NCBI RefSeq assembly: GCF_000026545.1
Contig: NC_011601.1
DNA from: Escherichia coli O127:H6 str. E2348/69
Lineage (GTDB): Bacteria; Pseudomonadota; Gammaproteobacteria; Enterobacterales; Enterobacteriaceae
Strand: one strand, 5' to 3'
Length of the DNA: 64,000 nt
The position numbers were made by a program. Positions 22,301-25,300 of this stretch are shown here, piece after piece; the first letter of the stretch is position 1; each line of letters starts with the position of its first letter.

Positions 22301-25300
22301 CAGGACGAGGGCAGCATGGCGGTAAGCACATGCGAATCGTTTTCGGATGGACGGATGACGCCGTCACGAATAAGGGCTACAGACATAGTTAGACTCCATC
22401 TTAAAGTTGGTAATAGATTTATTAATGCGAGTGCGATTCATGCGTTTCGATCAATGTCGAAACTTTTTTATTTCTTCTTTCACGGATAATATTGAGTGTC
22501 TCAACACTTAATGAGAAAAATATCGCGAAGTAGAGATACTCTTTGGCAATATGAATGTTGAGACTATCGGCAACCAGCAATACACCGACAAACAATAAAA
22601 AGGTTAACGCCAGTATTTTTATTGACGGCGTGGCGTTAACGAAATCACCAATTGTTTTCGCCGCAAACATCATGACACCGACGGCAATCATTACGGCGGC
22701 AATCATGATAAATATATGCTGAGAAAGGCCGACGGCGGTGATCACCGAATCCAGGCTAAACACGATATCGAGCAGCATTATCTGTACAATGGCACCGCAC
22801 AACGACAGTTGCCGCGATCCGCTGCCATGTTCGTCTTCCTGCGCGGGCGACAGCTCTTCGCGTATCTCCTGTATCGCTTTATAAATCAGGAACAGCCCGC
22901 CCCCGAGCAGAATCAACGTGCGGAACGAAATCTCCAGCGTCAGCACGGTAAAAAGCGGCTGGGTAATATGTGAAAGCCACGCAATGGATATCAGCAATAA
23001 TATCCGCATAATCATCGCGCAGCTTAAACCCAGTTTACGCGCCATATTTTGTTGTGATAACGGAAGTTTTGCCACCACCAGTGAAAGAAAAATAATATTA
23101 TCCACCCCAAGAATAATTTCCAGAAAGGTGAGGGTAATTAAAGTGAGCCAGATATCTGGCTGCATAAACCACAAAAACATGGGGTAATCCTTTATTCTCT
23201 TTATCTAAACTTTATAGCGGGCTGGATAATAGAGTTAATTTAATTAATGTTATAATGACGAATAATTTGTTGAATCTCGCTGATCTGTTCAGGCGTGAAA
23301 TTAACCGCGTAGCGGCTATCACCAACATCATGCCCCATAAGCTGCAACGCTTTTTTCACCGCAGCCGGGGAGAATGCTACTTTATAAAGATCGGTACGCA
23401 GGCCCGTTACACTCTCCTGTGCTTCATAAGACCCTTCAATATCACCGGCATGGAAGCGAGACCAGATGGCATTGATTTCTCGCGGCGCGATGTTGGCGAG
23501 CCCAGAGATACAGGCTGAACATCCCTCGACAAACCCTTTATGGATCAGCGAATCCGGGCCGTTGAGCACATTAAAGCCGTCAATGTCGCGCACCGCATCG
23601 AGAAAACCCTTCAGGCTTTCGTCGCTTCCGGCGCTGTCTTTAATCCCAATGATATTGGGGTGCGACGCCAGAGCACGCGCGGTTTCTGGCTGGATCGTAT
23701 TGCCAGTGCGGGCCGGGATGTTATAGAGAAACATCGGAATGCTCAGTGCGTCGGCAATTGCGCTGTAATGCGCAATCAACTCTTCCTGTTTCAGCGGTAC
23801 GAAGTAAGGGGCAATGACCGACACGGCATCTACGCCAAGTTTTTCAATCTGCTGACCCAGACGAATCGTTTCGCGCGTAGAGATCTCGCCAATGTGTGCC
23901 ACGACCGGCGCACGACCAGCCACTTCATCCACGCAGGTTTGCGTAACGCTGAGCTTCTCCTGTTCATTCAACACAAAAAATTCGCCGTTGGTGCCGCCGC
24001 AAAAAATCGCGTTACCCGCTTCCAGTTGACGATTCACCTGCACTTTTAACGCCGGGATATTCAGACTGCCGGTCGCGGTAAACGGGGTGACGATAGCGGT
24101 TAATACACCTTCAATGGTTTTCGGCATGATTTATTCCTTAAATTGATGTTGCGGAAACAGTGTTTGGTAAATGGCCTGTACGTCCTGTAGATCAAGCTGG
24201 CACGGCACATTGTTCATAAGGCGCTTCACGTTCAGTGCCGCCTCGCTAAGAGAGGCAATATCCTCTGGCGGTACGCCGAGATCTGCGAGATTGTTGGGTA
24301 GCTTGAGTTGATTGACTAATGCCTGTAACCAGGTCACCAGGGCATGAGATTTTTCTTCCGCGCTCAGGGCGGTTTCCGCATCGGGAATGCAATCCCAGAC
24401 CCGGGCAAATTTCTCGACCGCCCAGGGGCGAACAAACGCCATGCACGGCGCCAGCAAGATGGCATTCGCGACGCCATGCGGCAGATGATATTTGCCACCT
24501 AACGGGTAGGAGAGCGCATGAACGAGATGCGTGCCCGCATGGGTTATCGCTACGCCGCCATAGTAAGACGCCCACAGCATTTCCAGTTTTGCGCGCAGAT
24601 CCTGAGGATCGTTCACGGCGGGTTGAATGTGCCGGAAAAGTTTACTTAACCCAGTCAGCGCCGCGTTATCGCTGACCGGATTTGCCACGGTCGCGGTAAA
24701 ACACTCCAGTAAGTGGCAAAGAGCATCAATGCCCGTGGACGCCGCAATATGCGCAGGCATGCTGGTGGTCAGTTCCGGGAAAAGCGCCACATAGTCTGGT
24801 AACAGCATCTGGGAAATAATACCCACCTTCGTGCTTTGCTCAGGGATTGCCAGAATCGCATTCGGCGTGGCTTCTGAGCCGGTTCCGGCGGTTGTAGGAA
24901 TCAACCATGATTGCACCCGCTGAGTTGGTTTTTCACCCGCAAGCAGCGCATCCAGCCCCGGAGATTGTGGATGGCAAAGCACCGATAGCAGCTTTGCCAC
25001 ATCCAACACGCTGCCACCGCCGATCCCGACCACCACATCAAAAGAGGCATCGCCAAGGACATCCATTAGCTGGCGCACATCATGATGCGTGGGCTCTGCG
25101 GGCACATTATCGATAACGTTAACCTGCGGGCAGTGCTGTTCCAGTAAGGCGCGAATCTGCTGCACACCGTCGAGCTGCGCAATATTACGGTCAGTGACCA
25201 GCAGCATTTTTCTGATGTCGGGTAAGAGCGACGTCAGGGAAGGGATAGCGCCTGCGCCGCTCAGTATCGTGCTATTGATAATTACCACAAATAACCTCTC

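Follow-up and report, generated by a model that had tools for sequence, protein, structure and literature searches.

TerC proteins are widespread and poorly understood. Members of the family have been described as manganese exporters or metal chaperones (PMC10550928, PMC10197570), and in the Mn exporter Alx the acidic residues E86, D92, E213, D216, and D222 are required for Mn2+ export (PMC10197570). For the Bacillus subtilis TerC protein MeeY, a partnership with the SwrC pump has been proposed in which an acidic cargo is metalated (PMC12096827). Another member, YgdQ, belongs to the E. coli "y-ome" (PMC11551758). In a screen of the Keio collection, a ΔygdQ mutant lost CaCO3 precipitation on calcium carboxylates, and the model offered in that work calls for an unidentified Ca2+ exporter (PMC12707652). 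Here, we analyze a YgdQ-like TerC gene located at positions 22422-23180, minus strand, of a 64,000-nucleotide window (the whole stretch of DNA analyzed) from Escherichia coli O127:H6 str. E2348/69. The 6 kb around the gene are 100% identical to this enteropathogenic E. coli (EPEC) strain. An initial annotation of this DNA had placed the gene in a catabolic operon and regarded that context as unusual and as possibly indicative of either a metal requirement of the pathway enzymes or a non-canonical transport role.

We conclude that the gene, which lies on an accessory island and which we call island TerC, represents a functional variant within a known family, one whose context had not been described before. 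Our preferred reading, which we put forward tentatively, is that its product is a divalent-cation translocator coupled to the uptake of a metal-chelating acid sugar; the ion, the direction of movement, and the coupling are points that we infer. The evidence that carries this reading comes from the protein's family and its conserved acidic residues, its maintenance in E. coli, its tight linkage to the operon, and the recurrence of TerC genes at related clusters that differ in the carrier they encode.

Island TerC is a divergent paralog of YgdQ

The 252-codon open reading frame (ORF) at 22422-23180 begins with ATG, with an AAGGA ribosome-binding site ending 7 nt before the start codon, and its product corresponds to the RefSeq "TerC family protein" WP_000480546.1. 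The initial assignment to the TerC/YgdQ family is confirmed by a match to Pfam TerC (PF03741) that covers residues 15-205 and profile positions 1-177 of 178 (E=4.3e-46; 157 bits, cut-off 27.8), together with 62% identity to E. coli K-12 YgdQ (b2832) across 237 aa, full length. TerC was the only family returned by the Pfam scan, and the MntP family profile, proposed at the outset as a comparison alongside YgdQ and Alx, gave no match. Identity to Alx is 20%, and four of the five acidic residues required for Mn2+ export by Alx are kept: E21, D27, D138, and D144 align with Alx E86, D92, D216, and D222, while Alx E213 is replaced by M135, a methionine that YgdQ also has. D27, N28, D138, and D144 are invariant in an alignment of YgdQ-like, YjbE-like, and Alx sequences. 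NCBIfam subfamily models scored below their cut-offs against island TerC (YkoY, 85.6 bits, cut-off 138.5; YjbE, 67.4 bits, cut-off 134.8; also Alx), and sequence searches of the Protein Data Bank (PDB) found no relative of island TerC or of two other proteins of the island, the BNR protein and the permease.

In K-12, the housekeeping ygdQ gene occupies a mutH-ygdQ-ygdR context. YgdQ orthologs of Enterobacterales are 80-91% identical to one another, and the island proteins are 60-64% identical to these orthologs and 70-80% among themselves. Neighbor-joining (NJ) trees place the island TerCs in a clade that is sister to all Enterobacterales YgdQ, and orthology fails on both counts, as island TerC falls outside the YgdQ clade and lacks mutH-ygdQ-ygdR synteny. 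Given this separate clade, its location between nagE and glnS, and the retention of the host's own ygdQ at mutH, island TerC is therefore a divergent paralog and not an ortholog, in agreement with the earlier description of a YgdQ-like paralog.

One metagenome contig (L184, 1052-4386) joins an island-type DHDPS-TerC gene pair to housekeeping ygdR-tas, and its TerC (P0038) looks like a hybrid of the two paralogs. We rejected P0038 as an intermediate between island TerC and YgdQ, as the contig has low coverage and is probably an assembly chimera, with a real recombinant as the alternative.

The gene is intact and embedded in an operon-like array

Nine genes make up the accessory island, which is inserted between nagE and glnS and is carried by about 19% of complete E. 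coli genomes. The TerC gene follows a gene for a DHDPS-family lyase by 59 bp and precedes a BNR_2 gene by 35 bp, with all three genes on the minus strand; it is thus sandwiched between the lyase and the BNR protein as originally described. The shared strand, the short gaps, and an adjacency that is conserved across taxa argue that it belongs to the catabolic operon. Promoter-like and terminator-like matches around the gene are no commoner than in shuffled sequence and are uninformative as to a separate promoter.

The 6-kb island core is present in 1081 of 5426 complete E. coli genomes, invariably on the chromosome, and marks a B2/ExPEC-type (extraintestinal pathogenic E. coli) fifth of the species. 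Of the 1047 E. coli genomes that carry TerC, 1046 have it at full length. By the Nei-Gojobori method (NG86), its dN/dS is 0.048-0.064 in unsaturated pairs, including 0.048 between Klebsiella spallanzanii and K. grimontii (dS 0.81) and 0.054 between two Kluyvera species (dS 0.34); neighboring genes range from 0.015 to 0.19. These values show strong purifying selection, comparable to that on the neighboring enzymes. A pseudogene or recently duplicated, decaying copy, which the initial annotation had named as an outcome that would overturn its reading, is excluded by the 1046 intact copies and a dN/dS near 0.05.

In the avian pathogenic E. coli (APEC) strain BEN2908, the TerC gene is split by an IS1A element (NZ_LR740776.1, 703609-704869). 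A 2026 paper on this strain lists the island as the uncharacterized "GR 6 nagE..glnS" and omits the TerC ORF (PMC12928451), because IS1A interrupts the gene in BEN2908.

TerC genes at related clusters

Related clusters were collected by an alignment search with the BNR protein, taking one genome per species (80 loci), and by a metagenome scan (80 more). For annotation of their ORFs, we used BLASTP comparison with reference proteins and a hidden Markov model of TerC. BNR-cluster loci number more than 1000 in total; 160 were sampled, and the 159 found via the BNR protein alone were used for counts. The commonest architecture is DeoR< PdxA2< DtnK< / Fe-ADH> DHDPS> SSS permease> BNR> YhcH> SDR> (SSS, sodium:solute symporter; SDR, short-chain dehydrogenase/reductase; Fe-ADH, iron-containing alcohol dehydrogenase). 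It occurs in Leclercia, Enterobacter, Kosakonia, Pantoea, Pectobacterium, Dickeya, Erwinia, Rahnella, Serratia, Citrobacter, Gilliamella, and Tolumonas. Variants are found in Bacillus, Bradyrhizobium, Methylobacterium, and Ralstonia, and clusters of rhizobia, Agrobacterium, and Azospirillum have ABC importers instead.

In clusters of the E. coli type, TerC stands where the commonest form has its SSS gene, and an SLC13 permease stands where it has SDR; in most of the 159 clusters, the slot occupied by TerC in E. coli holds an SSS and no TerC. The flanking enzymes of SSS-type Leclercia are 74-84% identical to those of E. coli, as similar as those of TerC-type Kluyvera are, and the double replacement therefore arose within Enterobacteriaceae. 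That TerC sits between the DHDPS and BNR genes, where some 120 other clusters have their SSS permease, raises the alternative that the YgdQ-like protein has taken over from that permease and itself carries an organic solute, be it the substrate, an intermediate, or a toxic by-product. TerC has also been assigned to the LysE superfamily, some members of which export small organic molecules. We nonetheless consider this quite improbable. Every TerC-containing locus with enough readable sequence also encodes a separate dedicated carrier (SLC13, SSS, TTT, or TAXI-TRAP), which argues against TerC as the substrate transporter; moreover, the acidic residues of metal export are conserved, and transport of an organic solute is not known for any member of the TerC family.

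Including the E. coli form, which we call type A, TerC genes are attached to the cluster in several ways, with at least four arrangements in or beside it in addition to the E. coli one. Type A comprises E. coli, Klebsiella, Kluyvera, S. salamae, and Metakosakonia. The same nine genes in the same order occupy another chromosomal site, near marRAB, in Kluyvera, Salmonella enterica subsp. salamae, and Metakosakonia, and the arrangement is also found in Klebsiella spallanzanii and K. grimontii. The gap from TerC to the BNR gene is 23-35 bp in all eight type-A loci, and the spacer upstream of TerC varies from 59 to 283 bp among genera. In type B (Pectobacterium betavasculorum and Brenneria), the order is Fe-ADH, DHDPS, a distant BNR protein (BNR', 37% identity), SLC13, TerC (~60% identity), and YhcH, with TerC overlapping YhcH by 1-4 bp. 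In type C (Dickeya solani and D. fangzhongdai), a YgdQ-like TerC is appended after the SDR of a full SSS-type operon adjoining yacL-acnB; in D. oryzae and D. undicola, the cluster occupies this same locus but lacks TerC. Type D comprises Betaproteobacteria in which a YjbE-type TerC directly follows Fe-ADH (Propionivibrio soli, a related metagenome contig, and Ca. Accumulibacter) or follows the genes for a TAXI-TRAP carrier (Formivibrio). For TerC, the dN/dS values are 0.10 (type B) and 0.15 (type C). In the NJ tree, the type-B and type-C TerCs lie on a branch separate from the island (type A) clade; a single origin of the island and Dickeya/Pectobacterium TerCs was rejected, the joint clade having only 5.5% bootstrap support.

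Two of these loci show further features. The ~293-bp spacer upstream of type-B TerC (L180, 9708-10000; L181, 9706-10000) is well conserved over its last ~200 nt despite a flanking dS of ~0.8; it has no Rfam match and may be an internal promoter, an operator, or a novel leader. Where D. solani has TerC (L178, 10001-10741), D. oryzae and D. undicola have a 557-aa ORF on the opposite strand (L046, 12486-14159).

Across the 159 loci, 12 TerC genes lie inside or directly adjoin the cluster, and one more follows the cluster's TAXI-TRAP genes; the remaining ~1115 flanking ORFs contain none. The context that had been called unusual is thus also non-random. TerC has been recruited to the cluster repeatedly, at different positions and from two TerC subfamilies, and its link with the operon looks functional and not accidental. 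A duplicated ygdQ might instead be a passenger, carried along by recombination and serving a generic membrane or metal housekeeping function independent of the pathway. Consistent with this, most versions of the cluster lack TerC, so the pathway works without it; the YjbE-type TerC of Betaproteobacteria has near homologues in unrelated contexts; and the contig described above joins island and housekeeping copies. A passenger would be hard to reconcile, however, with independent joining of the same cluster at different positions by two subfamilies, with the absence of TerC from the non-adjacent flanking ORFs, with purifying selection equal to that on the enzymes, or with its retention in at least six genera and in 1046 genomes of E. 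coli despite the host's own ygdQ. We therefore find this explanation hard to credit. The unrelated contexts of those homologues did lead us to discard the idea that YjbE-type TerC forms a pathway-specific lineage, although its adjacency to the cluster still recurs.

Carrier type and the role of TerC

Whether a cluster contains TerC tracks the type of carrier it encodes. TerC is found at eight of nine SLC13 loci, Actinobacillus being the one without it, and at one of 122 SSS loci, which represents the Dickeya clade. None of the four loci that have only ABC importers contains TerC, or none of six if two SSS+ABC loci are counted. Among loci with the carrier types TTT and TAXI-TRAP, Propionivibrio soli (TTT) and Formivibrio (TAXI-TRAP) have TerC. 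When loci are collapsed by lineage, with lineage counts judged by eye, TerC occurs in one of ~30 SSS/ABC lineages versus 4-5 of 10-11 others (Fisher p 0.003-0.01). This pattern, carboxylate carriers (SLC13/TTT/TAXI) on one side and SSS/ABC importers on the other, points to a transport-coupled role of TerC in metal handling.

BNR'-SLC13 gene pairs without TerC are carried by a megaplasmid of Enterococcus raffinosus and a plasmid of Subdoligranulum. Between the E. raffinosus locus (L182, 8578-11221) and that of P. betavasculorum (L180, 6964-9707), amino acid identity is 84% for BNR' and 82% for SLC13. Such identity between a Firmicute megaplasmid and an enterobacterial chromosome implies recent inter-phylum transfer, and the comparison of type B with Enterococcus indicates that TerC was added on the enterobacterial side.

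The distribution also bears on the metal requirement of the pathway enzymes that the initial annotation had suggested. Under this explanation, TerC would tune cytoplasmic Mn, Fe, or Zn so as to metalate or protect the Fe2+-dependent alcohol dehydrogenase and the metal-dependent PdxA2. The cluster does encode Fe-ADH and PdxA-family enzymes, TerC lies directly after Fe-ADH in Propionivibrio, the related metagenome contig, and Accumulibacter, and both metal export and metal chaperoning are documented for TerC proteins (PMC10550928, PMC10197570). The same two metalloenzymes are nevertheless encoded without TerC in 121 of 122 SSS-type and in 4-6 ABC-type clusters, which counts against the enzymes having a general metal requirement. 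In addition, every one of the enzymes resides in the cytoplasm, yet transport by known TerC proteins takes metal out of it, and E. coli TerC adjoins neither Fe-ADH nor PdxA2. We regard enzyme metalation as unlikely.

In the preferred reading, that of a divalent-cation translocator coupled to uptake, island TerC would be co-transcribed with a DeoR-controlled operon for the catabolism of an acidic, ulosonic-type sugar. The SLC13/CitMHS-type permease would take up the chelating carboxylate substrate, and metal would enter with the substrate or be released from it. During induction of the operon, TerC would export a divalent cation (Mn2+, Ca2+, or similar) from the cytoplasm, thereby removing the metal or recycling it to the periplasm. 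Carriers of the CitMHS family, and TctCBA in Corynebacterium, import metal-citrate complexes. Two published leads agree with such a scheme: the loss of CaCO3 precipitation in ΔygdQ (PMC12707652) and the proposed MeeY-SwrC partnership (PMC12096827).

Several observations weigh against this reading. The AlphaFold2 (AF2) model of island TerC is of low confidence, with a mean predicted local distance difference test (pLDDT) score of only 61. No yybP-ykoY Mn riboswitch or other Rfam element was found in the window or in eight related loci. The family of the E. coli permease is ambiguous, with CitMHS and Na_sulph_symp/SLC13 as the candidates. Exceptions to the association with carriers run in both directions: Actinobacillus, Enterococcus raffinosus, and Subdoligranulum have SLC13 homologues in the cluster but no TerC, which rules out that SLC13 always needs TerC; two TTT loci (L100 and L101) and the TAXI-TRAP locus of Vibrio hepatarius (L064) have no TerC; and Dickeya solani retains TerC alongside an SSS carrier, with no SLC13. 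Finally, the authors of the calcium carbonate screen left the ygdQ hit unpursued, and their screen also picked up lplT, which lies only a few genes away from ygdQ (PMC12707652). Because of the carrier exceptions, we hold our confidence in the proposed role somewhat below even.

A homolog of a different metal transporter is found in one related cluster. In a Lysinibacillus metagenome-assembled genome (L066, 8618-9970), the gene immediately before the BNR gene, where the transporter is encoded, specifies an Nramp-family divalent-metal-transporter homolog (NCBIfam Nramp_1, above cut-off), apparently another metal-transporter family embedded in the pathway.

Genes of the island and a putative pathway

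The island, its borders, and its intergenic regions comprise the following features.

17421-19367, plus strand: nagE, core-genome left border of the island (RefSeq annotation)
19456-20736, minus strand: SLC13/CitMHS-type (ion-transporter superfamily) permease, final gene of the minus-strand operon (Pfam)
20750-21220, minus strand: YhcH/YjgK/YiaL (DUF386) protein, NanQ-like (Pfam DUF386); 4-bp overlap with the BNR stop codon
21217-22386, minus strand: cytoplasmic BNR_2 protein with a sialidase fold (Pfam BNR_2, E=3.5e-65)
22422-23180, minus strand: TerC-family (YgdQ-like) protein, putatively of the inner membrane, 252 aa (Pfam PF03741, YgdQ identity)
23181-23239, minus strand: 59-bp spacer between the DHDPS-family gene and TerC, holding the ribosome-binding site (sequence read)
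23240-24127, minus strand: DHDPS/NanA-family class I aldolase, the "lyase" (Pfam DHDPS, E=3.5e-61)
24131-25288, minus strand: iron-containing alcohol dehydrogenase, first gene of the minus-strand operon (Pfam Fe-ADH, ADH_Fe_C)
25289-25457, no strand: divergent intergenic region between Fe-ADH and dtnK (gene coordinates)
25458-28435, plus strand: dtnK (D-threonate kinase), D-threonate-4-phosphate dehydrogenase (PdxA2), and a DeoR regulator (NCBIfam, Pfam, RefSeq)
28655-30319, plus strand: glnS, core-genome right border of the island (RefSeq annotation)

The permease, named "SLC13 family" in RefSeq, matches Pfam CitMHS with 87 bits (cut-off 31.9) and Na_sulph_symp with 48 bits, falls below the NCBIfam DASS cut-off (57 bits versus 199), and is 72-73% identical to the permease adjoining TerC in Pectobacterium and Brenneria. 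The YhcH-type protein is below the NCBIfam cut-off for N-acetylneuraminate anomerase (91 bits versus 160). No signal peptide was seen on reading the N terminus of the BNR_2 protein. Its AF2 model (pLDDT 93) is a six-bladed propeller, for which the best Foldseek matches are GH33 sialidases (TM ~0.70, 12-17% identity). The nearest PDB sequences to the DHDPS-family aldolase are DapA, YagE, and NanA, and it is below every NCBIfam equivalog cut-off for DapA and NanA; Fe-ADH likewise has no NCBIfam equivalog at cut-off. On the plus strand, the D-threonate kinase and the D-threonate-4-phosphate dehydrogenase pass NCBIfam equivalog cut-offs (ThrnKinDtnkGamma, 533 bits, cut-off 450; PRK03371, 680 bits, cut-off 583), and the regulator has DeoR Pfam domains. 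The spacer upstream of TerC contains no terminator, no Rfam match, and one weak promoter-like match. The region between Fe-ADH and dtnK, with a plus-strand promoter-like match at 25410-25438, is presumed to be the control region of both operons.

Within the island, dtnK (25458-26693) is by far the fastest-evolving gene, with 52-54% amino acid identity among E. coli-type clusters and dN/dS of 0.12-0.25; the other cluster proteins are 71-89% identical, except YhcH (62-66%). Ralstonia (L008, 5115-7415), the loci L090 and L092, and many metagenome loci encode a ~770-aa protein that matches both the DUF1537 kinase and PdxA, suggesting that the last two steps of the pathway are fused in several lineages.

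Taken together, the genes at 19456-28435 look like an uncharacterized route that handles a C7 ulosonic or ulosaric acid. Its substrate might well be a 2-keto-3-deoxy diacid of seven carbons, and we infer as a putative candidate 3-deoxy-D-lyxo-heptulosaric acid (Dha), a sugar of the pectin rhamnogalacturonan II (RG-II). Aldol cleavage of Dha would yield pyruvate and a 4-carbon aldehydic acid, which Fe-ADH would reduce to D-threonate, as we read the Fischer projections, with dihydroxyacetone phosphate (DHAP) to follow. Hosts of the cluster are heavily plant or pectin associated and include Pectobacterium, Dickeya, Pantoea, Gilliamella, the Bacillus pumilus group, rhizobia, and Ralstonia. A literature search found no paper on Dha catabolism or on the function of the cluster.

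By extension, YgdQ- and YjbE-type TerCs might be partners of SLC13, TTT, and TAXI-TRAP carriers, cycling a divalent cation so that a metal-chelated acid sugar of the plant cell wall enters and the metal is returned. We think this generalization unlikely to hold as it stands; if true, it would give the YgdQ subfamily its first physiological role. The pathway, if real, would be a new catabolic capacity carried by B2/ExPEC E. coli and many plant-associated bacteria, and its substrate may bear on gut colonization by pathogenic lineages and on cross-feeding on dietary pectin. For the TerC family, an inducible operon that has captured TerC repeatedly amounts to a natural experiment on function, as the operon context predicts the condition, growth on the operon substrate, in which deletion of TerC should show a phenotype.

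Comparison with known systems

The closest described protein is YgdQ, with which island TerC shares full-length similarity, an architecture consisting of the TerC domain only (no CBS/CorC), and the motifs LEIxLGxDNIIF and LLDIxFSLDSVITAVG. The island copy differs in having a 15-aa C-terminal extension, in being island-borne, and in being embedded in a catabolic operon. The TerC-family Mn2+ exporters and metal chaperones Alx and MeeF/MeeY/YkoY (B. subtilis) belong to the same Pfam family, and island TerC keeps four of the acidic residues of Alx, but identity is ~20%, and island TerC has no yybP-ykoY riboswitch and has methionine in place of Alx E213. Its low-confidence AF2 model shows seven long helices, and Alx has nine. 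The YjbE-type TerCs of betaproteobacterial clusters lie on the same strand as the cluster genes and directly after them, but are only 22-28% identical to island TerC and represent another subfamily (NCBIfam YjbE, 220-238 bits, above cut-off).

At the level of the cluster, the nearest parallel is provided by sialic acid (nan) clusters. Families shared with these include the DHDPS-family lyase (NanA), DUF386 (NanQ/YhcH), a GH33-fold protein, and, in most versions, an SSS permease (SiaT). However, no island gene reaches the nan equivalog cut-offs, and whereas the nan substrate is a C9 sialic acid, the island cluster ends in a D-threonate kinase and dehydrogenase, which implies a C7 (3+4) acid instead. 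Nan clusters are not known to carry TerC.

For the pairing of a TerC protein with a carrier, MeeY-SwrC of B. subtilis offers a conceptual parallel, as there too a TerC protein has a small-molecule carrier as its proposed partner, and the cargo is a metal-binding organic acid (PMC12096827). That system exports a lipopeptide through an RND pump; the putative partner of island TerC would be a carboxylate importer.

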